Part shown: one piece after another, positions 191 to 49,034 of the stretch
Layout: each line of letters opens with the position of its first letter
How positions within the stretch are numbered: position 1 is the stretch's first letter
DNA from: an uncultured Planctomycetales bacterium
GTDB taxonomy: Bacteria; Omnitrophota; Gorgyraeia; Zapsychrales; JANLHA01
Length of the DNA stretch: 64,000 nucleotides
Assembly: GCA_964450385.1 (NCBI GenBank)
Contig: CAYVEC010000003.1
Coordinates: forward strand, 4,104-68,103
Direction of reading: 5' to 3'
The notes under the pieces: generated by a model
Told to the model about the DNA's origin: nothing
Database searches by the model: none
What the model saw: only the letters and a program-made list of their open reading frames with translations
Translations under genes and position numbers: made by a program

Positions 191-353
191 TGACCTGCCG
201 TGCCTGGCTGGCGCCTGCATTTTTCGATCGTGCTATGAAGAAAGCGCTTGCCCATTTTGACTGTTTTACCCTTTTCTTCGTATTTTTATCAGATATACTT
301 TCACTATAAAAATGTAGAGGAATCGTCAAAGATTCCGGTTTTTTTAGAAAACA

Positions 354-3300
354 TGGCAAAAAAAACCTCAAAATTCGTCTCCCTTCTTGTACTCGTCTTT
401 TTTTTGACAAGCACGATCATGCCGCCGTCGTTATCGGCACAGGGGGTGGGCCTCTCTGGGGCCCTGCCCGCACCCGGGACCTTGGTCATGCCGACTCAGG
501 CCTTTGATCCTGTTCAATTGATGGGGATGCAGATCGATCTTGCCCGGCCGTTTCAGGTGAATTTTATCCTCGACACCGGTGACACGGGGCTCATGGGCGA
601 CCCGCTTAAAGACGAGGTCACACGGATCGCGCGCTATTTTTTGGCGAGCCTCGCGCTCCCGGAGAAAGACCTCTGGGTCAACCTTTCTCCGTATGAGAAA
701 GAACGGATCATTCCCGAGGATTTCGGGCTGACTGAAATGGGGCGCGATGTCCTGGCTCAGGATTATGTCTTGAAGCAGCTCACCTCGTCGCTCCTTCATC
801 CTGACCACGCGACGGGAAAGGATTTTTGGCAAAGGATCCGTGAACGCGCGGCGCGCGAGTTCGGCGCCTCGAACATTTCGGTGGAGACCCTTCATAAAAT
901 CTGGATCGTTCCGGAAAAGGCGGAGGTCTTCGTGAACGGCAGCACCGCCCTCCTCGGCGAGGTGCGGCTGAAGGTCCTGCTTGAGGAGGATTATTGGGCG
1001 CAGAGCGAGCGCGCGTCCTCGAGTCTAGCGGCACCGGAGGGGGGTTCGGGCCTGAATGCCCTTCAGACCCAGATTCTGCGTGACGTCGTGGTCCCGGAGG
1101 TCGCGCGCGAGGTGAACGAAGGGGAGCTCTTTGCCACGCTCCGTCAGGTCTATCGCGCGATGGTCCTCGCGGTGTGGTATAAAAACACCCTGACCGAGAG
1201 CATGCTCATCCAGCGCTATGCCGACAGCGGCCGGATCGACGGGGTTGACCTCGATGACCCGGCTGAGAAAGAAAAGATCTACGCCGAGTATCTCGCGGCG
1301 TTTAAAAAAGGGGTGTTTAATTTTATCCGGGAGGATACGGAGCCCCTGACCCAGCAGGTGATCCCGAGAAAATATTTCTCCGGCGGGGTTGATAACGCGA
1401 TGATCGCTCAGGCGATTCAGGTCAAAGAAGGCCCGATCCCGTTAGAGAAGAGGAATGGAATTTTTGGCCGCATCGGCCGGGCCGGGGCAGGGGTTGTCTT
1501 GGCTGCCCTGGCGCTGACAGCTTCCGGGACCGTTCATTCAGCTGAGGCCCCTTCACGAGGGGTCATCGAGATTACTGCTGGTTCCCCGGAACAAGGCCTC
1601 ATATCAAAGGAGGCCTTTAGGAAAATTTTGGAGAAGAGGGGGGCCTTTTGGTTTGATGATGTTCGATTGGTTCTGAACAATGAAAATCTGTCCCCTGCAA
1701 TGATTCGGCCATATTGGGATATGTTTTTAAAGATGACAAGCAATTTGAAGGGGATGACAAATGATGAGCGGGCGGGTATTGTCTCGGTTCTTCACGATTC
1801 CTTCCGGCTTTTCGGGTATACAGGCGCGATCGAGCGATCAGGGGGGCAGCTTATTCCTTTTTCCGAACAGGTTTTTGGCCGGTTCTTTCAAACTTCGTCG
1901 AGTGATGGCCTAACGACGTTGTATCGTCTTGATGAGATTGACCCGCCCACGCGTGTCGCCTATGTGAAATGGGCGTCATGGGCCGTTCAACAGCGCAGGC
2001 CCGCTGGTGTCAGCGTTCCTGCTGATGTGGCCGAGGTCCTCGTTTCATTCCGCGGGTTTTATGGGCTTAAGAAGGACTTGGGGCCGAAACCATTTCAGGC
2101 CTTTTTCAATCAGGTCATTGCGGAACACCCTATCATTGCTTTAAAAGGCCTGCTGCAAGTCAAGGCCGGCAGTCCCGATTGGCTAGAATATTGGCCGCCG
2201 ATGATGAGCGCCTTGGGTAAGACCATGCGACAGATGCCATTCCAGGATGTCCGTGCGGTGAATGATGCGGTCGTGAAAATGATTTCGGATGCAGGAGGAT
2301 ATCAACAGGCGAGGCGGCTCCTTGGTAAACGATGGGTCGACTTTATGCGAAAGTTTGTTGTTGCCTCTGCAGACAGCCTGACGTCTTCACGGGCCTTGTT
2401 GGACATTGAGAGAGAGACGAGTTTTAATTATTTGCGGGCCCTTTCGTCTGTTGTTCCTTCGGATCACGAGGACTGGGAATTGGTGATGAATGATGTGTTT
2501 ACTCATGCAGCGGCTCTGTTGGGTCAGGCTCAGGGATCAGGGAGGACCGATCAGCGGCGGCACGCGTCGGCGATGGTCTATGCCGGGATGCTTCTTGGGG
2601 GGTATGACGGTATGGAGGAGTTTTTGGCTAAACAAGGCGTCTTTATGCGCGGGCCCTTGCTTGAATTTTTGGTTGCTGAGTTAGACAAGGAAGTTCAGAT
2701 CGCCCTTAATCAGGGAGCTTCGCTTGGTGTTGTGAATGAACGGCTTTCTCCTAACATGAATGCATTGATCCGGATGCTATTCTGGTATCGTTCTCTTGAT
2801 ACGGATGACGGGGAGGCCTATGCGCGTGTGATGATAGCGAAGTTACGCCGCCTCATCGGGTATTCGGGCACGGCGGAGCAGCTGTTGGCACGGCTCGATG
2901 CGAAAATTTTGATGGCGCATCTCGCTGATTTCGCGAATGGGGCGATTCATTTAGATCATGTGATTCGTGTTCTGGATCATCCACTTTTTCGTCAAGAGAC
3001 AGCGGACATGGACCCGGCGCACCGGTTTGTGGTGGCACGGATGATCGAGGTGACCCTTGAGCGGGTCGATGCGCAAATGACGGATGAGAATATCGGCATA
3101 CTTGCCCCGCTTGTGATTCAATCATGGTATGAATTCGAGGGCCGTCCTATTCTGACAGAGGGCCAGACTGTTGTGCTGGTTTATGGGGATGATAAGAAGA
3201 CTTTCGGTGATGATCTTTTTACGATTCGTGAATTGGCCAAAGATTTTCATTTGAGGCTCATCGAACTCGGACCTGAAAAGGACAAATCCGAGGTTGAAAG

Positions 3301-4108
3301 GGTTCTGCGCGACTCGAGGGTTTCAGCCGCAGTATTTATTGGTCATGGCAACCAATATCGAGATAATAGGGGGATCCCTCATACCGTGTTTGTCCGTCGA
3401 TCAACATCGCCGTCATTGGGTGTCTCACGAGACATAGGGGGCCAGGAAATTATTACGGATGAGGAGGCGGGAGCATGGATTAAAGGGAAGTCGCTCCTTG
3501 TCACAACATCATGTTACGGTGCCGATTTTTTTCGTTATGTATCCGGTGCTGTTGTAGTCGGGGATGCAGGCCGAGGCAATGTTGCGATTGGACGCTCACA
3601 TGTTTTAAAATTGTTTTTAGAGGGGGACAAGCAAGGTGGCAAGATCAGGGGGGGGGCGTTATACAACTTTGCTGATGCCCCAGAGGCTTCATTCCCATTT
3701 ATAAGTATCCCCGAGAAGCGCGGAACGGTTGAGGGAATATTCAAGCGGCTCAAATTCAAGCCAGGAAAATCAAAAAAGTCTATTGAGCCGCCGACGAATT
3801 TATACGGAGTTGTTCCGATTATTAATGATGCCGGTGATTCGTCTCGGATGTATGCCGGTCGTTCGAGCAGCGGCAATCGTGACACAGCCATGATCGCTTC
3901 GGCCTCAACTGCCAGCCCCGGCAATGATCCGGTCGGCGGTATTGACCTTAATCCCGTTAACATGGATCTTATCATCAACGGGACACTCGCTTTTCCTGAG
4001 GTGTATTTAGGAGAATCGGTTCGTTTGCCCGATGATTTCAGCGGCCTGACCCCGCAGGTTCTCTTTATGGTGCCGGTTGTGTCGGGCACCCCTGCCCAGA
4101 ATCCTTAA
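354..4108 (+). CDS. Very large secreted multidomain protein (~1251 aa) of unknown function. It has an N-terminal signal peptide, an internal hydrophobic segment (~aa 400) and a C-terminal caspase-like (clan CD) His/Cys module.
   Basis: The ORF track gives 248..4108; I moved the start to ATG 354 (MAKKTSKFVSLLVLVFFLTSTIMPPSLSAQG = signal peptide) because upstream codons are AT3-rich. The motifs VVLVYG / AAVFIGHGNQY / SLLVTTSCYGADF match a caspase-fold dyad pattern. Its N-terminus is paralogous to the partial CDS at 63660. Confidence 0.6.
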
Positions 4109-5477: not shown

Positions 5478-5584
5478 ACCGTGCGGCCACTGCTGGGATG
5501 GGCCGCTGAGCATACATAAAGACTGCGTGGAGCGGAGTGTCAAAGGAGAGTCGCGCACAACCAACCAACAGGCAGGAAGGCGAT

Positions 5585-7300
5585 ATGTCAAGAACAAAGG
5601 CCAAGAAGGTCGTCAAAAAAACAACCCCCAAATCCGCCGCCAAGAAGCGACCGACGTTGGTCAAGCGATCTGGACAGCGGACCTCGAAAAAAGGCGAGCC
5701 CGGCAAGATGTCCCTTCCAAAGGGTCGCTCCCGGTTCACTGTTAAGATCTCGAAGCAGCGGAATAAGGACATGATCCTGATCCTGGACTTCGGCTCTCAG
5801 TATACTCAGCTCATTGCTCGACGGATCCGCGAGCAGAAGGTTTTTAGCAAGATTGTTCCTTACACCATCAGCGCGGCGGATATTTTGAAGGAGAACCCGA
5901 AGGGGCTTATCCTGTCGGGCGGGCCGATGAGTGTTTATGATGAAGGGGCGCCTCTGCCGTGCAAGGAGATTTTTGATCTTGGCCTGCCGATCCTCGGGGT
6001 CTGCTATGGGATGCAGGCGATGGTCCATATGCATGAGGGAAAAATTTCCCGTAGCAAGACGAGGGAATATGGCCGCGCCGAGCTTTTTGTCGACCGCAAT
6101 CGTGATATCTTCGCGAACCTTCCGACGAATCTGACCTGTTGGATGAGCCATTCGGACGCTACGGTCCAGATGCCCAAGGGCTTTCAGGTTTTTGCCCATA
6201 CGCTGAACGCTCCTGTCGCTGCGATCGGCCATGTTCGGAAAAAGATCTATGGGGTTCAATTTCATCCCGAGGTGATCCATACCCAGCGCGGGGCCGAGAT
6301 CCTGGGGAATTTTGTTTTTCAGGTCTGCAATTGTTTCCCCCGTTGGACCATGGATAAATTCATCGCCATGACAACGAAACAGATCAAGGAGCGAGTCGGC
6401 CAGAAAAAGGTGGTGCTCGGGCTGAGCGGCGGGGTTGATTCGTCGGTCACGGCCATGCTCATCCATCAGGCGATCGGCCGGAAGCTCCAGTGCATCTTTG
6501 TGGACAATGGTCTCCTTCGGAAGAACGAGGTGAAGGCCGTTGAGAAGATGTTCAAAGGCGCCTTTAAGATGAATTTGACGATCATCGACGCGAGCAAGCG
6601 ATTTTTGACCCGGCTCGCGGGGGTCACGGATCCGGAACAAAAGCGGAAGATCATCGGCGACGAATTTATCAAGGTTTTTCAGGATGCGGCTAATAAGGTG
6701 AAGAATGTAAATTTCCTCGCCCAGGGGACGCTCTATCCGGATGTCATCGAATCCATCTCTCCGCTCGGCGGGCCGTCGGCCACGATCAAAAGCCATCACA
6801 ACGTGGGGGGGCTCCCGAAGAATATGAAGCTCGAGCTCATCGAGCCGCTGCGGGAGCTTTTTAAGGACGAGGTCCGGGTGATCGGAAAACACCTCGGGCT
6901 CCCTGAAAGCGTGCTCCAGCGCCAGCCTTTTCCGGGTCCGGGTCTTGCGGTTCGCATCATCGGAGATGTTACTTTGGAGCGATTGGAGATCCTTCGTGAG
7001 GCGGATGAGCGTGTTCTCGAAGAGATCAAACGCGAGGGGCTGTATGATAAGGTCTGGCAGTCGTTCGCCGTTCTTCTGCCGATCAAGAGCGTCGGGGTCA
7101 TGGGTGACCAGCGGACCTATGAAAATGTCGTCGCGATCCGATGTGTCTCGAGTCATGATGGCATGACCGCCGATTGGGTGGAGCTTCCCTATCCTGTTCT
7201 CGGGCGCATCGCGAATCGGATCATCAATGAGGTCGCGGGGGTCAATCGCGTGGTCTATGATGTGAGCTCAAAACCGCCGTCCACGATCGAGTGGGAATAA
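5585..7300 (+). CDS. guaA: GMP synthase (glutamine-hydrolysing) with an in-frame ~62-aa Lys-rich N-terminal extension. An alternative core start is ATG 5771 ([14 protein letters not shown]).
   Basis: Class I GATase ([22 protein letters not shown]) plus ATP-PPase ([10 protein letters not shown]) and a C-terminal dimerisation region. The extension [23 protein letters not shown]... has GC3-rich codons, a strong RBS (AGGAAGG) before 5585, and no stop before the core. Confidence 0.85.
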
Positions 7301-28128: not shown

Positions 28129-28167
28129 GGTTCAACGTGTTTGTTAAAGGAAAGGGAGAAGGAGAAC

Positions 28168-30999
28168 ATGGCTACAAAGTATGTGTATGGGTTCGGCGGC
28201 GGAACAGCCGAAGGCCGGGCCGAGATGAAGGAGCTTCTCGGTGGCAAGGGCGCGAATCTCGCAGAGATGTCGAATATCGGCATTCCGGTTCCGGCGGGGT
28301 TCACGATCACGACCGAGGTCTGCGCGTATTATTATTCGCACGGAAACAAGAAGCCCGAGAGCCTTGATAAAGAGATCGATCTTCATATTAAGAAACTCGA
28401 GAAGACCATGGGCGCGAAGTTTGGCGACAAAGAGAATCCTCTGCTCGTGTCGGTGCGTTCCGGTGCCGCGGTCTCGATGCCCGGGATGATGAACACGGTC
28501 TTGAATCTGGGTATCAATGATGACGCGGTCGTCGGTCTCGCGAAGAAGACAAAGAACGAACGGATGGCTTGGGATTCGTATCGCCGGTTCATCAATATGT
28601 TCGGCGATGTGGTTATGGGCGTGGACCATGAGCACTTCGAAGAGGAGCTCGGCCGGATCAAGAAACAGTACGGCCGGAAGCTCGACACGGAATTGACTGT
28701 CGCGGAACTTAAAGAGGTTGTCGCGGCGTATAAGAAGGTCTATGAGAAGCACGTGGGGAAGGGTTTCCCAACGAACGCCCGTGAACAGCTTGGGTATGCG
28801 ATCGACGCGGTCATCAAATCATGGATGATCCAGCGGGCGATCACCTACCGGATGATCAACAAGCTCCATGGATTAAAGGGGACGGCGGTCAATGTTCAGG
28901 CCATGGTTTTTGGGAACATGGGTGACAGTTCAGGGACCGGCGTTGCGTTTACACGAAATCCTGCCGACGGGACCAACAAGTTTTTTGGGGAATATCTTGT
29001 CAACGCCCAGGGTGAGGACGTCGTCGCTGGGATCCGGACTCCGGAGCCGATTTCGGATCTTGAGCGTGACATGCCGAGGGTTTATAAAGAATTGGACGCG
29101 ATCCGTCTCAAGCTTGAGAGGCACTATCGCGAAATGCAGGATGTTGAGTTCACGGTTCAAGAGGGCACCTTGTACATGCTTCAAACCCGTACTGGGAAAC
29201 GGACGGGGTTGGCTGCCGTGAAGGTCGCGGTGGATATGGTGAAGGAAGGGCTCATTTCCGAGGAAGAGGCCTTGGCGCGTATTGCCGGGGATCATCTCAA
29301 CCAGCTCTTGTTCCCGATCTTTGATCCGAAGGATAAGCAGGCAGCGATCGCGGATAAACGTGTGGTTGCGAAGGGGCTGCCGGCTGGTCCGGGCGCGGCC
29401 TATGGGAAGGTTGTGTTTAACGCGGAGGATGCCGAGACCTGGGCGAAGAACGGCCAGAAGGTGATCTTGGTCCGTAAAGAGACATCGCCTGAAGACGTGG
29501 CGGGGATGTGGGCCGCGCAGGCGATCTTGACCTCAACGGGTGGGATGACGTCTCACGCCGCTGTTGTAGCCCGCGGATGGGGTAAGTGCTGTGTCGTCGG
29601 ATGCGGGGCCCTTGAGATCAGCAATGCTCAAAAAGAGATCCGGGTCGCCGGCAAGGTGATCAAGGAAGGAGATGACATCTCGGTTGATGGGTCAACCGGA
29701 GAGGTTCTTCTTGGCACGGTGAAGACCACGGCATCGCCTGTTATTGACGGGGTGGTGAATAATAATCCGGAGGCTAAAAAGCATCCGATCTATAAGATGT
29801 TCACGGAGATCATGGCGTGGGCTGATAAGACCCGCCAGATCAAGGTTCGGACGAATGCGGATTCTCCTCAAGATGCCGCGAACGCCCGCGCGTTGGGTGC
29901 TGAGGGGATCGGGCTTTGCCGCACCGAGCATATGTTCTTTGAAGGTGAGCGGATCTGGGCGATCCGGGAGATGATCCTTGCCGGGGATACGGCCGGACGC
30001 GAGAAGGCCCTTGCCAAGCTCCTGCCGTACCAGCGTCAGGATTTTGAGGGGATCTTCCGGGCGATGAAGGGGCTGCCGGTTACGATCCGGTTGCTTGATC
30101 CGCCGCTCCATGAGTTTTTACCTCATGATGCCGAGGGACAGGCCGAGATGACCCGCCGGCTCGGGACAACGCCTGAGCGCGTGAAGGCGAAGGTCGATCA
30201 GCTTCATGAGATGAATCCGATGCTCGGGCATCGCGGGTGCCGTCTTTCGATCACCTATCCGGAGATCTGCAAGATGCAGACGACCGCGATCGTTGAGGCC
30301 GCCTGCACGGTTGCCCAGGAGGGGCTCAAGGTCCTTCCCGAGATCATGATCCCGCTTATTGGCACGAAGCAGGAATATGATCTCTTGGACGTGATCATCC
30401 GTGAGACCGCGGATGCGATCATCAAAGAGCGTAAGGCAAAGGTCCAGTATATGGTGGGGACCATGATCGAGATTCCGCGCGCGGCCTTGGTTGCTGATAA
30501 GGTGGCGGAAAAGGCGGAGTTCTTCTCATTCGGGACGAATGACCTCACCCAGATGACCTTGGGGTATAGCCGGGATGACGTCGGGTCATTCCTGCCTGAG
30601 TATATTAGTAAGAAGGTTTTCCGTGAGGACCCGTTTGCATCGATCGATCAGGAGGGTGTTGGTGAGATGGTGAAGATCGGTGTTGAGCGAGGGCGGATGT
30701 CCCGTCCCGACCTCAAATGCGGGGTCTGCGGTGAACATGGAGGCGATCCTGACTCGGTGAAGTTCTTTGCCAAGGCAGGGCTGAATTATGTGAGCTGCTC
30801 TCCCTACCGTGTCCCGATTGCTCGTCTCGCAGCGGCCCAGGCCGTGATCTTGGCCAAAAAGGCAGCGGCGGCTGCGGCAGCGAAGGGCAAAAAGGCCGGA
30901 CAGGCGAAGAAAAAGGTGTCGGCCACGGCAAAGAAGGCCGTTAAAAAGACGGTGAAAAAGGCCGCGGTCAAGAAGGCGGCTTCACGTAAGAGGAAATAA
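28168..30999 (+). CDS. ppdK: Pyruvate, phosphate dikinase with a ~70-aa Lys/Ala-rich histone-H1-like C-terminal tail
   Basis: Complete PPDK with the phospho-His domain (GGMTSHAAVVARGWGKCCV) and PEP-utilising C-terminal domain. The tail ...KKAAAAAAAKGKKAGQAKKKVSATAKKAVKKTVKKAAVKKAASRKRK is in frame, and RBS GGAGAAGGAG precedes the ATG. Confidence 0.95.
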   Translation: MATKYVYGFGGGTAEGRAEMKELLGGKGANLAEMSNIGIPVPAGFTITTEVCAYYYSHGNKKPESLDKEIDLHIKKLEKTMGAKFGDKENPLLVSVRSGAAVSMPGMMNTVLNLGINDDAVVGLAKKTKNERMAWDSYRRFINMFGDVVMGVDHEHFEEELGRIKKQYGRKLDTELTVAELKEVVAAYKKVYEKHVGKGFPTNAREQLGYAIDAVIKSWMIQRAITYRMINKLHGLKGTAVNVQAMVFGNMGDSSGTGVAFTRNPADGTNKFFGEYLVNAQGEDVVAGIRTPEPISDLERDMPRVYKELDAIRLKLERHYREMQDVEFTVQEGTLYMLQTRTGKRTGLAAVKVAVDMVKEGLISEEEALARIAGDHLNQLLFPIFDPKDKQAAIADKRVVAKGLPAGPGAAYGKVVFNAEDAETWAKNGQKVILVRKETSPEDVAGMWAAQAILTSTGGMTSHAAVVARGWGKCCVVGCGALEISNAQKEIRVAGKVIKEGDDISVDGSTGEVLLGTVKTTASPVIDGVVNNNPEAKKHPIYKMFTEIMAWADKTRQIKVRTNADSPQDAANARALGAEGIGLCRTEHMFFEGERIWAIREMILAGDTAGREKALAKLLPYQRQDFEGIFRAMKGLPVTIRLLDPPLHEFLPHDAEGQAEMTRRLGTTPERVKAKVDQLHEMNPMLGHRGCRLSITYPEICKMQTTAIVEAACTVAQEGLKVLPEIMIPLIGTKQEYDLLDVIIRETADAIIKERKAKVQYMVGTMIEIPRAALVADKVAEKAEFFSFGTNDLTQMTLGYSRDDVGSFLPEYISKKVFREDPFASIDQEGVGEMVKIGVERGRMSRPDLKCGVCGEHGGDPDSVKFFAKAGLNYVSCSPYRVPIARLAAAQAVILAKKAAAAAAAKGKKAGQAKKKVSATAKKAVKKTVKKAAVKKAASRKRK

Positions 31000-31015: not shown

Positions 31016-31061
31016 GGGGTGGGAACTTTTTTTAAAAAGTTCCCACCCCATCCGTTTTTTT
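31016..31061 (+). terminator. Rho-independent terminator after ppdK
   Basis: A perfect palindrome ggggtgggaacttttt/aaaaagttcccacccc followed by a T7 tract. Confidence 0.7.
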
Positions 31062-31186: not shown

Positions 31187-32005
31187 ATGGACCCAGTCAA
31201 ATCATACTTCAAAGACGTTCGCGACATCCCTTTATTAACTGCCGAAGAAGAGGTGGCCCTGGCCCAGCGTGTCGTCGCAGGGGACCGGGAGGCCCGTGAG
31301 ATGATGATCCGGTCGAATCTTCGACTGGTGATCAGCATTGCGAAGCGCTATATCAATTTGGGCGTTCCGCTGAGCGACCTTATAGAGGAAGGCAATATCG
31401 GGCTGATGAGGAGTGTGGAGAAATTCGACCCGTCAAAAGGCTTTCGGTTTTCGACATACGCGGCCTGGTGGATCAAGCAGGCGATCTCGCGCGCGATCAT
31501 TGATCAGGGGAAAATGATCCGCGTTCCTGTTTATATGAATGAGGAGATCGTGAAATATAAAAAGGCGGTCGAGGCCCTCACCCACAAGCTCGACCGAAAG
31601 CCGCGCGTTGCCGAGATCGCGAAAAAACTCCAGACCTCGGTCGACAAGGTCCGTGAATACGAGCGCTCGATCGCGAAGATGTCGAGTCTTGACGCGCCGA
31701 TCGGTGAAGACGGGGAGGGGCAGGTCAGCGACCTGATCGCTGATGAGCGGATGGTTTCTCCGGACGCTCAGCTCGAGAGTTTTCTCAACCGTGAGCGGGC
31801 GAATGAGCTTTTAGACATCCTGCCAGAACGCGAACGCGAGATTCTTGAGATGCGTTACGGCCTTTTGGACGGCAAGCCTCAGACCCTCGCGGAGATCGCC
31901 CAGAAGATGCGGGTCTCGCGCGAGCGGGTTCGGCAGCTTGAAGGACAGGCGATCAAGCGGATTAAGCAATTGATCGACGAGGGGCAGGATGCCGGGCCTT
32001 CGTAA
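31187..32005 (+). CDS. RNA polymerase sigma-70 family factor (RpoD/RpoS-like, short, no region 1.1)
   Basis: Regions 1.2 (YFKDVRDIPLLTAEEE), 2 (SNLRLVISIAKRY), 3 and 4 are present, 272 aa. Confidence 0.85.
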   Translation: MDPVKSYFKDVRDIPLLTAEEEVALAQRVVAGDREAREMMIRSNLRLVISIAKRYINLGVPLSDLIEEGNIGLMRSVEKFDPSKGFRFSTYAAWWIKQAISRAIIDQGKMIRVPVYMNEEIVKYKKAVEALTHKLDRKPRVAEIAKKLQTSVDKVREYERSIAKMSSLDAPIGEDGEGQVSDLIADERMVSPDAQLESFLNRERANELLDILPEREREILEMRYGLLDGKPQTLAEIAQKMRVSRERVRQLEGQAIKRIKQLIDEGQDAGPS

Positions 32006-33070: not shown

Positions 33071-34414
33071 ATGAAAAAAGTGTTATTAGCCGTACTCGCG
33101 ATCGCGTTGATGGCTGCGCCGGCGTTTGCTAGCGTGCAGAACATCAAGGTGAGCGGGGACATCGAGACAACATACCTGAATCGTGAGAACTTTGATTTGG
33201 GCGGCTCAACGGCCACCTATGATCAGAGCGTCTTCTTGATGCAGACACGCCTGCGCGTTGATTCCGATCTGACCGACAAGGTTGCGGCCACGATCGCCCT
33301 GATCAACGAGCGCGAATGGGGTGCCAGCACCACGACGACAGGTGTCGACCTGAATCTTGCCTATGTGACGATGAAAGAGATGCTCTATTCTCCGCTCACC
33401 GTCACGCTCGGGCGCCAGAATTTTGCCTTCGGGAATTCGTTTGTGATCGATTCCGCAGGGACAAACAATTCGGCTCCGGCTGATTCGGGCTTGAACAGTA
33501 TCGCCGAGGATTTAACCAAGCAGACGGCTCAGGATGCAATCCGCCTGACGTTTGATTACAATCCGTTGACGATCGATGTGGTTTATTCCAAGATCACTCA
33601 GGGTGTTGTTTCCGGGACGATCGAGGATGATGACACAGACCTCATCGGGATGAACGCCAGCTATCAGTTCGATGATGAGAAGGCGACGCTTGTCGAGGGG
33701 TATTTATGGGTGAAGAATGACAAGCCGGCAGCTCTGGGAGCGGGCGATGATAACGCCAAGACCGACAGAGTCTATATGCCCGGTGTGCGTTCCAGCATGA
33801 ACATCTTGGATGGATGGAATCTTCAGGGTGAGTTTGCCTACCAGACCGGCACGAAGTATCTTGGCGCTGCTGGTGAGCATGCCAGCCGCAAGGCCTATGC
33901 AGCTCAGGTGATCTCGAGCCATGCCTTGAAGTTCGAGAAGACTGCAAAGTATAAGCCGGTGTTCGCGATGTCCTACACGATGTATTCAGGGGACACGAAT
34001 GGGGCTCCTGGTGATGAGCGCTATAGCGCATGGGATCCCATGTATGAGAATCAGGCAGGTGGCAAGATCTACAACACCTTGTTCAATGCGAGCAACTGCC
34101 ATATCGTTGGCGCGAGCCTTTCAATGGTTCCGGCGGAGGACGTGATGGCTCAGCTCTATTTTGATCATCTGTTTTTGGATAAGGAAGTTGGGGCCTTTGC
34201 CCTCAATCAGCCTGACGGATCGACCTCGACACCGACTCAGAAAGGTAACGAAAGCCTCGGCAACGAGGTTGGGATGGTCGTGACGTATGACTACACCGAG
34301 GATGTTCAGCTTGGCGCTCGCGCGGGCTGGTTCTTCCCCGGGTCACGTTATGGCAATGACAAGAAGAATGATTCTGCCTCGCAGGTTTTGTTGAACGCGA
34401 AGGTGTCATTCTAA
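33071..34414 (+). CDS. Outer-membrane beta-barrel protein, porin-like
   Basis: Signal peptide MKKVLLAVLAIALMAAPAFA, alternating amphipathic strands and a C-terminal Phe (..AKVSF). It has a ~190-nt 5'UTR and a strong terminator after it. Confidence 0.7.
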   Translation: MKKVLLAVLAIALMAAPAFASVQNIKVSGDIETTYLNRENFDLGGSTATYDQSVFLMQTRLRVDSDLTDKVAATIALINEREWGASTTTTGVDLNLAYVTMKEMLYSPLTVTLGRQNFAFGNSFVIDSAGTNNSAPADSGLNSIAEDLTKQTAQDAIRLTFDYNPLTIDVVYSKITQGVVSGTIEDDDTDLIGMNASYQFDDEKATLVEGYLWVKNDKPAALGAGDDNAKTDRVYMPGVRSSMNILDGWNLQGEFAYQTGTKYLGAAGEHASRKAYAAQVISSHALKFEKTAKYKPVFAMSYTMYSGDTNGAPGDERYSAWDPMYENQAGGKIYNTLFNASNCHIVGASLSMVPAEDVMAQLYFDHLFLDKEVGAFALNQPDGSTSTPTQKGNESLGNEVGMVVTYDYTEDVQLGARAGWFFPGSRYGNDKKNDSASQVLLNAKVSF

Positions 34415-34427
34415 CTTCAGTTAAAGA

Positions 34428-34477
34428 TTGTGATGTGGAGGCCGGCAGGAGAGTTTCCTGCCGGCCTCTTTGTTTTG
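34428..34477 (+). terminator. Rho-independent terminator after the OMP gene
   Basis: Stem gaggccggcagga/tcctgccggcctc followed by TTTGTTTT. Confidence 0.7.
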
Positions 34478-34715
34478 CGGCATTGCGTGACGCTGCCGTC
34501 AGAGGTGGGGCCCGCAGTGAATAAAAAAATTTCATGCTCATGAGGCCCTGCGCGGATCCATTCAGTCTTTTTCCGACGAGAAAAATAAAAAAAATACATA
34601 AAAAAAAATTAAAAAAGATTCCCTCCTGTCGTCTTATTTGTTATTATAAAATCAATTATAATGATGATTAGGTTTAAAGAAGTATTTAAACCTTTTGATA
34701 TTAGTGAGTTGTGCT

Positions 34716-35291
34716 ATGACCAGAGATGAAATTTATGATCATCTGGCTCAGGTGTACCTTGGGAAAAAGCGGCAGACCCAGGAACCGCCCCCGCGGCAGA
34801 TCAGCACCTGGCTTGTGATCAATATGATGATAACCGTGGTGATTTTTGCCACGTCGGTTTACGGTCTTACCGCTTTTCTTGCTCGACGGGGAGACCTCTT
34901 GGAGCAGCGCGTCATCTACGCCCTGAACAAGGGGCCGATCCGAGTGCCGTATGATGTGCGGCAGCCCTACCCTCAGGTGAAGACGTTCTCGCTTCCGGTG
35001 ACGGGCGTGGACGCGGGCAAATTCGGACGGCTTCAGTTTGCGGTCCGCGCGAGTGAGGGCGGGTCGCCCGGGGTGATACGGATCGAGGTGCGGAATCAAC
35101 GCCACGAAGTGAGCTCGCGGATCATCGATGGGATTGGTCATCAGTGGAGGCAGCGGAGTATCGCGTTTGAGGATTTTGCAGAGATCTCGGATTGGTCGAC
35201 GGTGTCAGAGATCCATTTTATTATTGAGGCGTGGAACGCAGATAAGAAAAAGGGCGCAGTACTAATCGATGACATCTGTTTTTCGAGTTAA
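34716..35291 (+). CDS. Hypothetical single-pass membrane protein with a ~140-aa extracytoplasmic beta-rich domain
   Basis: First ATG in the ORF, one TM (WLVINMMITVVIFATSVYGLTAFL), GC3-rich codons. It heads the ParA cluster. Confidence 0.55.
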   Translation: MTRDEIYDHLAQVYLGKKRQTQEPPPRQISTWLVINMMITVVIFATSVYGLTAFLARRGDLLEQRVIYALNKGPIRVPYDVRQPYPQVKTFSLPVTGVDAGKFGRLQFAVRASEGGSPGVIRIEVRNQRHEVSSRIIDGIGHQWRQRSIAFEDFAEISDWSTVSEIHFIIEAWNADKKKGAVLIDDICFSS

Positions 35292-35309
35292 CAGAAAGGG
35301 CCTGGCAAC

Positions 35310-36407
35310 ATGAAAATCATTTCGATCGGGAATCAGAAAGGCGGCTGCGGGAAGACCACGACGGCGATCAATCTTGCGTCGTCATTCGCCCAGAATGGGA
35401 AGCGCACCCTGCTCATTGATTTGGACCCGCAGGCCCACGCGTCGCTCGGCCTGAATTTCGAATGCCAGGAGAGCATGTACAATGTGATCTCGAGACTCGC
35501 GCCCCGGAAGCTCGGGATCGTTCAGATTATCAAGCGTGTTGAGAAGAATTTTGATATTGTCCCGTCGAACCTTCTCGTTGGGACCCTCGAGCAGGAGCTT
35601 GCTGATGAGATCGGGCGCGAGACAAAGCTCGCCGAGGTCCTGGCACCGCTTCAGAGTGAGTATGATTATATTCTTATTGATTGTCCGCCGAGCCTGGGGT
35701 TCCTCACGATCAACGCGATCCGCGCGAGCCACGAGATCTATATCCCGGTTGAGACGAGCCGGTTCTCTCTCCAGGGGGTGGACCATGTTCTCGATATTAT
35801 CCGTCTGATCCGTCAGCGTCTCAATCATCCCGTTGAATATAAGGTTTTGGTGACGATGTTTGATTCCCGGCTGCGTCATTCCTTTGCGATGCTATCCAAG
35901 ATGCGCGAGATGTTCGGCGAAAATCTTTTTGACACCATCGTTCATGTGAATGTGAAGCTTAAAGAGTCGGCGGTGATGGGCCGGACCGTTGCAGCCTATG
36001 ATAAATATTGCCGCGGGGCCAAGGATTATTTTTCGTTGGCCAAAGAGGTGATCGCGCACCATGACGCCCTGCCGTCGTCGCATCCGGACATCTCGGACCG
36101 CCTGAGAGAGCTCATCCATCAGGAGACCCGCGAGATGGTCCGGCTGACCCGTTTTCAGCTTGCGGCCCCCGAGGCCCGGTCGGTCTATGTGACGGGAAGT
36201 TTTAACGATTGGTCTCTCGATGAGAAGTATCGCATGGTGTCTGATAACGGGGTCTGGTCTGTGGAGATCCCGCTCAAGCCGGGGAACTATCGGTATCAGT
36301 TTATTGTCGATGGGCGCTGGCGGGAAGATCCGGCGAACCCTGAGCAGGAACGTAATTCATTCGGTGATATCAATTCGCTTCTCGAGGTAGCATCCCATGA
36401 ATCATGA
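35310..36407 (+). CDS. ParA/MinD-family ATPase fused to a C-terminal AMPK-beta-like glycogen-binding domain (CBM48)
   Basis: Deviant Walker A KGGCGKTT, D-x-x-P and a Soj-like core (~255 aa). The C-terminus SVYVTGSFNDWSLDEKYRMVSDNGVWSVEIPLKPGNYRYQFIVDGRWREDPANP matches the AMPK beta GBD (..LSGSFNNWS..GEHQYKFFVDGQWTHDP..). Confidence 0.85.
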   Translation: MKIISIGNQKGGCGKTTTAINLASSFAQNGKRTLLIDLDPQAHASLGLNFECQESMYNVISRLAPRKLGIVQIIKRVEKNFDIVPSNLLVGTLEQELADEIGRETKLAEVLAPLQSEYDYILIDCPPSLGFLTINAIRASHEIYIPVETSRFSLQGVDHVLDIIRLIRQRLNHPVEYKVLVTMFDSRLRHSFAMLSKMREMFGENLFDTIVHVNVKLKESAVMGRTVAAYDKYCRGAKDYFSLAKEVIAHHDALPSSHPDISDRLRELIHQETREMVRLTRFQLAAPEARSVYVTGSFNDWSLDEKYRMVSDNGVWSVEIPLKPGNYRYQFIVDGRWREDPANPEQERNSFGDINSLLEVASHES

Positions 36408-36720
36408 GGACCGGGCTATTGATGGGATCGACGCCGAAGAAAAGGTGTTTGGCTTTTTGTCATATCTGTCGCTGCTCTGCATTGTCCCCCTTCTGATGAA
36501 ACGCGAGAGCGATTTCGTTTTGTTTCATGCGAAACAGGGGCTGATCCTGTTTTTAGGGCAGGTCGCCCTCTTCGTTTTAAGCACTGTCTTCCCCTGGGTT
36601 GTCCGCCCGGGGGCGTTCATTCTTTCAGCACTCGCTTTTTGGGGGATCGTTGAGGTTCTCTGCGGGCACAAAACCGCCTTGCCGGTTGTCTCGCATATTG
36701 CCGAAAAGATTTCTCTATAA
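36397..36720 (+). CDS. DUF4870-like small membrane protein
   Basis: FGFLSYLSLLCIVPLLMKRESDFVLFHAKQGLILF pattern. The start overlaps the ParA stop. Confidence 0.6.
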   Translation: MNHEDRAIDGIDAEEKVFGFLSYLSLLCIVPLLMKRESDFVLFHAKQGLILFLGQVALFVLSTVFPWVVRPGAFILSALAFWGIVEVLCGHKTALPVVSHIAEKISL

Positions 36721-36752
36721 GATCGCCGCTGACGATCCCTGACGACTGATTC

Positions 36753-37466
36753 ATGAGCATGATTGAGCATTTATTCCGCGCGTTACAGAGCGTCTTTGGT
36801 GCGCCGCCGAGAGTCCGGCGGCGACCGAGGACGGTTCGAAAGACAGCGTCGAGGACTAGACGCCTGGTGTCGCGTCAAGGGCGGCACGCGGGGGCGCGCG
36901 GGTCTCGGACCAAACGCCGCGAGAAGATATCGGCGCGCCGGCCCGTGGCAAAGACCGCAACAAAGGGTTCCAAAAAGACAGCTGCGACGGCGGTTAAAAA
37001 AAAGGTCAAGAAGGTTGTAAAAAAGGCTGTCGTGCGCCCCGTGACAAAGAGGCCCGTGAAGGCCGCGGGTCACGCGGCAAAAAAGGCGGCCGTTCGGCCT
37101 CCTCAGGTTCGGGCAGGTTCGCGGTCGTCAGGGGGTGCTCAGAAGATGCTAAAGAGCGGCCGACGGCCTGCCGATCAGCTGCGCAGGACATCGAACGCCG
37201 CTGCCCGCGATGAAGGGGTTTTTGTCGGTGAGATCACGCATTATTTTTCAAAGATCATGGTCTGCGTTGTGAAGATCGAGGGGGCGAGCTTGTTGATCCA
37301 CGATCAGGTTCATATCAAAGGGGCCACAACGGATATCCGTCAGGCGATCAGGTCCATGCAGATTGAAAGCCGGGATGTCACGGTCGCGCGGTCCGGGCAA
37401 CTCGTGGGGCTAAAGGTATCACGGATGGTCCGTGTGGGTGACAGGGTCTATAAGGTTTCAAAATAG
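36753..37466 (+). CDS. Basic protein with an Arg/Lys/Ala-rich histone-H1-like N-terminal half and a C-terminal small beta-barrel (EF-Tu domain-2-like)
   Basis: AKTATKGSKKTAATAVKKKVKKVVKKAVVRPVTKRPVKAAGHAAKKAAVRP low complexity, then VGEITHYFSKIMVCVVKIEGASLLIHDQVHIKG...VGLKVSRMVRVGDRVYKV. Confidence 0.55.
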   Translation: MSMIEHLFRALQSVFGAPPRVRRRPRTVRKTASRTRRLVSRQGRHAGARGSRTKRREKISARRPVAKTATKGSKKTAATAVKKKVKKVVKKAVVRPVTKRPVKAAGHAAKKAAVRPPQVRAGSRSSGGAQKMLKSGRRPADQLRRTSNAAARDEGVFVGEITHYFSKIMVCVVKIEGASLLIHDQVHIKGATTDIRQAIRSMQIESRDVTVARSGQLVGLKVSRMVRVGDRVYKVSK

Positions 37467-47475: not shown

Positions 47476-47566
47476 GGAGGTTTTTTATTTACAAAGCTCT
47501 TTAATATGACTATTATGAGACTGTTGATAAAGGCTTCCGAAGAGATCATGGGAGGCAGCGAAAGTT

Positions 47567-47722
47567 ATGGAGAAGAAGTCGGAATTTATCAAGAAGTTGG
47601 AGGAGAGCGACGACCCCGAGGACCGAGCCGACGCGATGGCTCTGAGTACGATATCGAGGGCGGGGAGAGAGCTCTTGAAGCAGCAGAAGAAGAAGAAACA
47701 GATGAGGCAGAAGAAGTCGTAG
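47567..47722 (+). CDS. Small hypothetical protein of 51 aa, highly charged
   Basis: [51 protein letters not shown]. Codon third positions are strongly GC, matching the genome, whereas the overlapping 82-aa ORF-track frame 47506..47754 is AT3-rich. RBS GGGAGG lies 11 nt upstream. Confidence 0.5.
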
Positions 47723-47753
47723 ATCCTATCGATTGGGACAAGGAGGCGTATTG

Positions 47754-49034
47754 ATGGAAACTCATGGACGATATCATGACGAGACCCTTGCGGTCCATGC
47801 CGGGCAGAGCCCGGACCCCGCGACCGGGTCCCGCGCCGTGCCGATTTATCAGACCACGTCGTATGTTTTTGAGAATACCGATCATGCGGCGAGCCTGTTC
47901 GCGCTTCAGGCCGCAGGGAATATTTATACGCGCCTCATGAATCCGACGACCGATGTCTTGGAAAAACGGATCGCGGCCCTCGACGGGGGGATTGGGGCCT
48001 TGGCCACGGCGAGCGGGATGTCGGCGATCGTGGTTGCGATCCTGACCCTGGCCCAAGCTGGGGATGAGATCGTGGCGGCGAGCGCTCTTTACGGTGGGAC
48101 ACGCACGCTTTTTCAGTACACCTTTAAACGTCTTGGGATCACGGTGCGCTTTGTTGACCCGTCTGACCCGAAGAATTTCGCCGCGGCGATCACAGCCCGG
48201 ACGCGCGCCGTGTACGCGGAGGTCGTGGGGAATCCGAAGCTCAACGTTCTGGATATCGAGGCGGTCGCGCGGATCGCCCATGGGGCGGGGGTGCCCTTGA
48301 TCGTGGACAATACGGCCACGGTTTATCTCTGCCGGCCGTTTGACTTTGGCGCGGACATCGCCGTGTATTCCGCGACAAAATTCATCGGCGGTCATGGCAC
48401 ATCACTCGGCGGGCTGATTGTCGATTCCGGCCGGTTCGTCTGGGATCAAAAAAAGTTCCCGTATATTGCGGAGAATGATCCGAGCTATCACGGGATGAAT
48501 TTTGTCGAGGCCTTTGGCCCGGCCGCGTATCTCGCAAAGGCCAGGACGGGATTGCTTCGTGACATGGGGCCTGCGATGGCGCCCTTGAACGCCTTCCTGT
48601 TCCTCCAGGGGTTGGAAACACTGCATTTGAGGATGCCGCGTCATGCCGAGAACGCACGGACCGTGGCCGAGTTTTTGACCACGCATCCCCAGGTCGCCTG
48701 GGTCGTTTATCCGGGGCTGATCGGCAGCCCGGATAAGGCGCGGGCTGACCGGTATCTTGCCCGCGGGGCCGGGGCGCTCGTCGGTTTTGGCATTCGAGGC
48801 GGCAGGGCGGCCGGGAAAACGTTTATCGATCACCTTAAGTTGATTTCACATCTTGCGAATATCGGGGACGCGAAGACGCTCGCGATCCATCCGGCGAGCA
48901 CGACCCATCAGCAGCTCTCGGCTGAGGAGCAGATCGCCGCCGGGGTGAGCGAGGATTTTGTCCGTTTGTCCATCGGCATTGAGCATGTCGATGATATTAT
49001 CAAAGATCTTCAGCAGGCCTTGGCGTCAGTTTAG
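47754..49034 (+). CDS. metY: O-acetylhomoserine aminocarboxypropyltransferase (sulfhydrylase)
   Basis: PLP-dependent Cys/Met metabolism family with the Lys motif ([11 protein letters not shown]). Confidence 0.9.

Follow-up and report, generated by a model that had tools for sequence, protein, structure and literature searches.

A lysine- and alanine-rich tail on the pyruvate phosphate dikinase of an uncultured Omnitrophota bacterium as a possible electrostatic tether

What would a strongly cationic, histone-like tail do at the end of a central metabolic enzyme, and is it truly part of the protein? The question is raised by the gene for pyruvate phosphate dikinase (PPDK) in a 64,000-nucleotide stretch of contig CAYVEC010000003.1 (the whole stretch is called the window below), from an uncultured bacterium of the Omnitrophota. 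A sequence-only reading of this DNA had pointed out the Lys/Ala-rich C-terminus of PPDK and described it as a histone-H1-like motif that recurs on unrelated proteins. Our analysis indicates that the tail is very probably genuine, in frame and translated. We put at about one half the probability that it is a disordered polycationic appendage, selected for its charge, by which the enzyme is tethered electrostatically and non-specifically to a polyanion.

The dikinase and its C-terminal tail

The open reading frame (ORF) of PPDK spans 28141..30999 of the forward strand; the ATG at 28168 is its likely start, from which the protein begins MATKYVYGFGGG. The protein is a bona fide member of its family: TIGR01828 is matched over its full length (residues 4-894 of 943) with 1353.3 bits against a cutoff of 843.45, and all three Pfam domains are significant (PF01326, PPDK_N; PF00391, mobile domain; PF02896, PEP-utilizers_C). 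The catalytic motifs GGMTSHAAVVARG (mobile-domain His, GGMTSHAAV) and CGEHGGDP (Cys of the phosphoenolpyruvate (PEP) domain) are intact in the translation, and H463 and C854 are invariant across 48 aligned homologues (alignment A1). The core is predicted by AlphaFold2 with pLDDT values mostly of 85-95 and a pTM of 0.79; its net charge is -1 and its isoelectric point (pI) 7.0. Among the GTDB species genomes the best matches are all metagenome-assembled genomes (MAGs) of Candidatus Omnitrophota, with 70-85% identity. Judged from its sequence, the tail-bearing enzyme is otherwise canonical and probably active.

Past the end of the family model the frame stays open for another 49 residues (52 if counted from the conserved ...LAAAQ motif), with the sequence LAKKAAAAAAAKGKKAGQAKKKVSATAKKAVKKTVKKAAVKKAASRKRK, up to the stop codon at 30997-30999. 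The earlier reading had the frame, the position and the letters of this extension right, and overstated its length as about 70 residues (its own coordinates give 56 codons). The 49 residues comprise 18 Lys, 17 Ala, 4 Val and 2 Arg, with no Asp, Glu or Pro, and give the tail a net charge of +20 and a pI of 12, by which the whole protein is brought to +19.

The tail has the coding character of the gene to which it belongs. The GC content at third codon positions (GC3) is 0.69, equal to that of the core, and the AAG:AAA ratio of 12:6 agrees with the usage of the genome, so that the codon argument for translation, put forward before, is borne out. The five alternative frames across the tail contain stops or nonsense only. 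An intrinsic terminator follows 17 nt past the stop codon, with a 15-bp stem at 31016-31049 (8 G-C pairs) and a T-run (folding dG -34.3 kcal/mol, z = -5.2; 0 of 200 shuffled sequences fold as well). The closest orthologues, P0242/L001 (85% identity) and P0244 (84%), also carry K-rich tails, of 46 and 41 residues respectively, which differ in sequence from the tail in the window (for example ...AKSAKPKVTKAKAAKPKAVKPKAKKK). The P0244 protein is found identical on at least eight contigs, which come from assemblies of JGI, ENA and Logan, and its locus shares synteny with 18.6-38.6 kb of the window.

These observations bear on the simplest objection, namely that an indel in the MAG has fused PPDK to downstream sequence. 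The exact protein is indeed known from a single contig of 107.7 kb (NCBI, P0241; proteins identical to the GMP synthase GuaA (P0121) and to the 237-residue protein discussed below are also present in NCBI, each with 107.7 kb as the length of its longest contig, presumably the same one). However, since equivalent tails are carried by the closest orthologues from other samples, one of them on at least eight independent contigs, a frameshift or mis-assembly is very unlikely, and with the codon usage of the gene itself, the closed alternative frames, and the stop codon and terminator immediately past the tail, the artefact is largely excluded and can be given next to no credence.

No tandem DNA repeat was found in the tail by Tandem Repeats Finder. 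Only short degenerate direct repeats of the AAAAAGGCC type (13-24 nt) are present, and degenerate AKKAVKK/TVKKAAVKK echoes are the sole repeat trace in the protein; the tail is therefore not a fresh product of slippage, and recent slippage expansion was rejected as its origin. In the AlphaFold2 model the last helix of the PEP domain is extended into the tail while pLDDT drops from 91 through 68 and 47 to 36, and residues 911-943 lie mostly below 50 (36-49). This profile is the usual signature of a segment predicted to be disordered or conditionally helical.

Lys/Ala/Pro (KAP) low-complexity domains of the histone-H1-like kind, to which the chlamydial Hc1 and Hc2 proteins belong, offer the nearest comparison. 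The PPDK tail shares their composition (Lys/Ala, no acidic residues, pI above 11, at least 40 residues, here on a folded domain and variable in length) and, by prediction, their disorder. It differs in having no Pro and no tandem oligopeptide repeats of the usually Pro-containing KPAA, PAKKA or AAKK kind, and in being attached to a glycolytic/gluconeogenic enzyme, whereas the bacterial KAP tails compared with it (AlgP, HupB, Ku, TopA, Hc1/Hc2) are found on DNA-handling proteins. The orthologues P0242 and P0244 (AKPK) and P0342 (KP-rich) come closer to typical KAP tails. With the C-terminal domain of eukaryotic H1 the tail has in common its overall composition and a low-confidence, possibly conditional helix; the globular winged helix of H1/H5 (PF00538) is missing, the Pfam scan having returned only the three domains of PPDK, and there is no detectable sequence homology. 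A phmmer search of 1.84 billion representative proteins with the 49 residues gave 0 matches, composition-bias correction being such that queries of this kind are removed. With no Pro, no tandem repeats and no linker-histone fold, "H1-like" is a label of composition and not of membership, and the earlier description holds to that extent.

Lysine-rich ends in other lineages and on other proteins

The distribution of the tail was surveyed over the 119 closest PPDK homologues with a complete C-terminus. Close to half of them (58) stop within a few residues of ...LAAAQAxx, and the remaining 61 extend further, with a short K cluster such as KKK in 18, 13-29 extra residues in 35, and 30 or more in 8. 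With its 52 residues past AAAQ, the PPDK of the window has the longest tail of the last group save one, a KP-rich tail of 105 residues on a protein annotated as Chitinivibrionales. Summed over the 119 C-termini, the residues past the core include 532 K+R versus 96 D+E; the sequence and length of the tail are thus labile while the sign of its charge is kept. On PPDK the tail is not conserved over the lineage as a whole: the closest relatives are tailed, and 58 of the 119 are without a tail.

Outside the Omnitrophota, K-rich segments of at least 30 residues are present at the N- or C-terminus of 14 of 72 PPDKs, versus only 2 such segments in about 350 flanking genes of the same loci, a number estimated from the length of the flanks (Fisher's exact p = 5e-10). 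The C-terminal ones occur in Ignavibacteriales, Verrucomicrobiota and Gemmatimonadota, the N-terminal ones in ten loci of Planctomycetota/Phycisphaerae (L015, L017, L029, L037, L041, L048, L064, L066, L072 and L074, at ~2770-3040 of each). The planctomycete extensions are in frame, 30-80 residues long and K-rich, e.g. MAKKTAKKSAKKTARKK..., and from their sequences their translation is probable but not certain. PPDK thus seems to have acquired polycationic ends again and again.

Within the window such ends are rare. A six-frame scan of its whole length for 30-residue stretches that hold 8 or more K and draw 26 or more residues from the set KAPVTSGR gave exactly three segments, at 5576-5707 (guaA), 30829-30996 (PPDK) and 36912-37097 (the 237-residue protein), each of which lies within a real gene and in its coding frame. 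The two further K-rich stretches named in the sequence-only reading are these, and no others were found. What recurs is composition rather than a motif or a homologous module, as the sequences do not align and the phmmer search was empty. The median pI of the proteins in the window is 6.4, and 3 of ~47 are decorated; in ~88 kb of further Omnitrophota DNA the decorated families are the same three only. The proteome is not basic overall, so that only a few specific proteins are decorated, and a globally basic proteome or a general small-cell adaptation was rejected on these grounds. The HU protein of the window has no K-rich tail.

One exception to the three families was met in another Omnitrophota MAG (L003, 5682-6900), where a sigma-70 factor just downstream of PPDK bears a K/R-rich N-terminal extension of ~110 residues (MKKSNKRKKAKRKKRKR...). 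Its orthologue in the window (31187-32005) has no extension, so the set of basic-extended proteins differs between lineages. In five non-Omnitrophota contigs (L109, L112, L117, L120 and L139) ORFs of 650-750 residues, which form one unrelated protein family, carry long N-terminal tandem KAP repeats of the AAKPAPKAAAKP type.

GuaA of the window is a full member of its family (NF000848, 809 bits, cutoff 400), the match covering residues 64-571 and leaving residues 1-63 in excess. The extension adds +21 to a core that already has a net charge of +11. Among the 120 best homologues (68-78% identity, all named ones being Omnitrophota), 111 have 44-123 residues before the ILxLDFGSQ motif, in genomes that span 38-57% GC. 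The extension is absent from 75 GuaAs of other lineages (~55-63% identity); in the metagenome scan from which this negative control was drawn ~5 loci were Omnitrophota-like and the remainder, of ~60% identity, came from other lineages. From these sequences the basic N-extension is near-universal in GuaA of the Omnitrophota type. It consists of a variable K/A/T/V-rich stretch and a semi-conserved junction, ...PKLRxPKGRxKFSVKITKxRxKD, and is predicted by AlphaFold2 as coil over residues 1-59, with pLDDT below 50 for nearly all of them. At 5660-5770 of the window, and in alignment A2, this basic junction follows the pattern G-LKTRF..PKKR.G..PKL+KV+GR...S.KI.K.R.KD and stands directly before the GATase domain. 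The junction motif is kept phylum-wide despite the predicted disorder; a specific binding peptide, and not just low-complexity sequence, is one possible reading of it.

The third decorated protein, of 237 residues, has a pI of 12 and a net charge of +49. Its 134 homologues (130-246 residues) share the C-terminal 80 residues; all carry the basic linker, of very variable length, and the N-terminal helix is short and conserved. EF-Tu domain 2 (PF03144) is matched by 24 of 37 members of the family, and the best matches of the barrel among solved structures are domain II of SelB/eEFSec (E = 0.008) and eIF5B. Most members of the family are from Omnitrophota, and some from WOR-1/Margulisiibacteriota. 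The suggestion of a lineage-wide trait is thereby upheld for GuaA (111 of 120) and for the 237-residue family; it does not extend to PPDK or to the proteome as a whole.

The gene for the 237-residue protein closes a conserved Omnitrophota cluster (33071-37466 of the window; also L161 16551-21850, L168 1116-5741 and L169 466-5429), which consists, in order, of an Alginate_exp-type porin, a ~195-residue protein, a ParA/MinD-like ATPase, a 107-residue MamF/MmsF-like membrane protein and the basic-linker barrel protein. The ATPase (35310-36407) is fused to a C-terminal glycogen-binding AMPK1_CBM/CBM48 module, and the end of its gene is overlapped by the start of the MamF/MmsF-like gene. From this arrangement the barrel protein could serve the ParA-like ATPase as its partner or adaptor in nucleoid-based positioning, for instance of glycogen granules.

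The coordinates of the features are collected in Table 1. In respect of the wider surroundings, ~46 of the 47 predicted genes of the window lie on the + strand. The gene order guaB-guaA-dnaE-HU-hisS-aspS-LysM-PhoH is kept in two other Omnitrophota loci, L165 (with two genes inserted between dnaE and HU) and L166, and L167 has only guaB-guaA-dnaE in common with it. A 1286-residue ORF at 248-4108 has no Pfam match at E <= 1e-5. At 47506-47754 lies a very acidic ORF of 82 residues (C-terminal net charge -15; GC3 0.40 versus ~0.67 elsewhere), which may not be a real gene.

Table 1. Coordinates, in the window, of the decorated genes and their parts
Feature	Position	Strand	Description
Complete PPDK gene	28168..30999	+	943 codons + stop; TIGR01828, PF01326, PF00391, PF02896
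Canonical PPDK core, residues 1-894	28168..30849	+	TIGR01828 positions 2-865 of 865
Lys/Ala-rich C-terminal tail of PPDK, residues 895-943	30850..30996	+	49 residues past TIGR01828 end; net charge +20
Intrinsic terminator directly after PPDK stop	31016..31059	+	Hairpin + T-run
guaA (GMP synthase), including basic N-extension	5585..7300	+	NF000848; 571 residues, NCBI P0121
guaA N-terminal extension, ~62 residues	5585..5770	+	Residues before NF000848 match; net charge +21
237-residue protein	36753..37466	+	Short N-terminal helix, basic linker, C-terminal EF-Tu-domain-2-like barrel
Basic linker of 237-residue protein	~36807..37202	+	K/R/A/P-rich
EF-Tu-domain-2-like barrel of 237-residue protein	~37212..37463	+	PF03144, structure matches

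A candidate tether and the alternatives

In the explanation that we favour, selection would act on the composition of the tail (many Lys, small neutral residues, no acidic ones) and not on its sequence, and the tail would hold the dimeric PPDK on a cellular polyanion by non-specific electrostatics, altering the location of the enzyme and not its chemistry. The likeliest partner would be nucleic acid, either nucleoid DNA or RNA/ribosomes, with polyphosphate (polyP) as the main alternative; nucleic acid is favoured because the third decorated protein has a barrel of the ribosome/tRNA type. That the tail binds a polyanion, which partner it binds and the metabolic rationale given below are what we infer from the analysis as a whole.

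Tails of this kind on enzymes have precedents, and the earlier view that the decoration of central metabolic enzymes is unusual calls for correction, since polycationic localisation tails are already known on Ppk1, the histidine ammonia lyase of T. cruzi, TopA and Ku. Ppk1 of Caulobacter crescentus has a 22-residue basic C-terminal tail with a pI of 11.8, which is needed for its localisation to polyP granules (PMC3806658). Like the PPDK tail it is a short, very basic, non-catalytic C-terminal appendage on a phosphotransfer enzyme, and it has no counterpart in orthologues such as the E. coli enzyme; unlike the PPDK tail, which is known from sequence, it belongs to another enzyme (PPK1), has less than half the length, and was established as a localisation determinant by experiment. 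The histidine ammonia lyase of T. cruzi is likewise a metabolic enzyme with a Lys-rich C-terminal region, which binds polyP electrostatically, and mutation of its lysines leaves the catalytic constants unchanged (PMC8561398); it differs in being eukaryotic, in relying on four critical lysines, in the inhibition caused by binding and in its targeting to acidocalcisomes. The KPAA tail of AlgP connects polyP granules and DNA (PMC9239181), lysine-repeat tails are carried by Ku (PAKKA; PMC3553676) and actinobacterial TopA (PMC7398561), and mycobacterial HupB has a tail of the KAP kind (PMC5676037).

A possible advantage of such tethering lies in the economy of pyrophosphate (PPi). The gene content of the window genome is anaerobe-like, with PFOR, NrdD and an ADP-forming acetyl-CoA synthetase. 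In anaerobes with a PPi economy PPDK runs in the direction PEP + AMP + PPi -> pyruvate + ATP + Pi, and AMP and PPi are produced in reactions associated with nucleic acids or with the synthesis of nucleotides, those of polymerases, aminoacyl-tRNA synthetases, GMP synthase and APRT; GMP synthase thus releases the very AMP and PPi that glycolytic PPDK consumes. PPDK placed beside such reactions would recycle both products locally, a rationale for co-localisation that we only infer. The PPi-energised pump HppA is encoded in Omnitrophota MAGs (PMC8542988).

Several observations weigh against the tether. About half of the closest orthologues (58 of 119) have no tail, so PPDK can function without it. 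Both the length and the sequence of the tail change readily, as would be expected of weakly selected low complexity. The link through AMP and PPi consists of two decorated enzymes and the neighbouring genes of GlyRS and APRT, which flank PPDK and have no tail themselves, and could be a coincidence. In many of the planctomycete loci with N-terminal extensions a second ATG stands at the canonical MVYYFG start, and the true start of these PPDKs is ambiguous for that reason.

The lability of the tail could be explained by neutral or nearly neutral low complexity, in which an AAG/GCN-rich gene end grows by slippage or duplication and is tolerated as a disordered segment of no specific function. The continuous range of tail lengths (0-52 residues among orthologues of 71-85% identity, with none in the 58 just mentioned), the unconserved sequence even in the closest relatives and the short degenerate direct repeats in the tail DNA are in line with it. 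Against neutral growth stand a charge that is one-sided in every lineage (the 532 K+R versus 96 D+E) and the lack of a tandem DNA repeat; AAA and AAG are one transversion away from a stop codon, yet 49 codons are open. PPDKs of several phyla have moreover acquired K-rich N- or C-termini independently of one another, flanking genes almost never, and the equivalent extension of GuaA is kept across the phylum with its conserved junction motif. We consider the neutral explanation unlikely. Targeting of PPDK to polyP granules, by which the enzyme would be coupled to phosphate and PPi reserves in the manner of the Ppk1 tail or the C-terminal domain of AlgP, draws on the known Lys-rich tails that bind polyP or localise to it (PMC3806658, PMC9239181, PMC8561398) and on the part of Pi and PPi in PPDK chemistry. 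It appears quite improbable, given that no ppk, ppx or other polyP gene was identified among the scanned proteins of the window, that polyP is not a substrate of PPDK, and that the translation-factor domain-II barrel on the third decorated protein points to RNA/ribosomes.

A physicochemical or regulatory device acting on the enzyme itself would place the function of the tail in charge balance, in solubility (an "entropic bristle"), in the capture of PPi, PEP or AMP, or in folding back on the cycle of the swivelling domain. The shift of the protein from -1 to +19 and the prolongation of the last helix of the PEP-binding domain in the AlphaFold2 model fit such a device, but a core that is near neutral needs no balancing, the GuaA core at +11 still bears +21 more, and in Planctomycetota it is the other end of PPDK, the N-terminus, that is extended, which speaks against an intramolecular role tied to position; we rate this device as rather less than plausible, at long odds. 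The longest odds among the functional alternatives are those of an amphipathic cationic helix, of the MinD/FtsA type, recruiting PPDK to anionic phospholipids, e.g. near a membrane PPi pump. The KKxxKKxxKK spacing, a maximal helical hydrophobic moment of 0.40 and the helix drawn by AlphaFold2 speak for it. That moment is equalled in 110 of 2000 shuffles of the tail (5.5%), and the mean hydrophobicity ranges from -0.34 to +0.05, with no Phe, Ile, Met or Trp and a single Leu, at the junction; such values are like those of a fragment of the H1 C-terminal domain and unlike those of the MinD targeting sequence or magainin. As the moment is unremarkable and the hydrophobicity negative, membrane anchoring is disfavoured, and the amphipathic helix was set aside as unsupported.

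Implications for Omnitrophota metabolism

The tail module and its general logic are already known. Phylum-wide fixation on GuaA, repeated acquisition by PPDK and a family in which a basic linker is joined to a domain-II barrel appear to be undescribed, and a limited literature search found no publication that ties Omnitrophota, PPDK or GMP synthase to lysine-rich extensions. For annotation it follows that neither the upstream start of guaA nor the long 3' end of the PPDK gene in Omnitrophota should be taken for an error and cut back.

Most of the basic disordered tails known to position proteins on the nucleoid or on polyP granules belong to DNA-handling proteins, and few to enzymes; here an uncultured phylum is found to have them on its PPDK and GMP synthase, where they may play a similar role. 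Three signatures of selection are displayed: only the charge is conserved, GuaA has kept its extension throughout the phylum, and PPDK has gained such ends repeatedly and independently, at one terminus or the other, in several phyla. A wider and much more speculative proposal, which we hold to be improbable as it stands, is that polycationic ends are a convergent spatial organiser of the PPi/AMP economy, used in Omnitrophota as well as in members of the PVC/FCB group and others (Planctomycetota, Verrucomicrobiota, Ignavibacteriales and Gemmatimonadota). PPDK as consumer and, in Omnitrophota, GuaA as producer would be brought onto the surface of the nucleoid or ribosome, where PPi and AMP arise, with charge and no dedicated scaffold protein holding them together. 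Should the tails turn out to tether their enzymes, this would speak for a spatial organisation of core energy and nucleotide metabolism in bacteria by simple electrostatics, and constructs with swapped or deleted tails would provide a testable handle on bacteria that resist cultivation.

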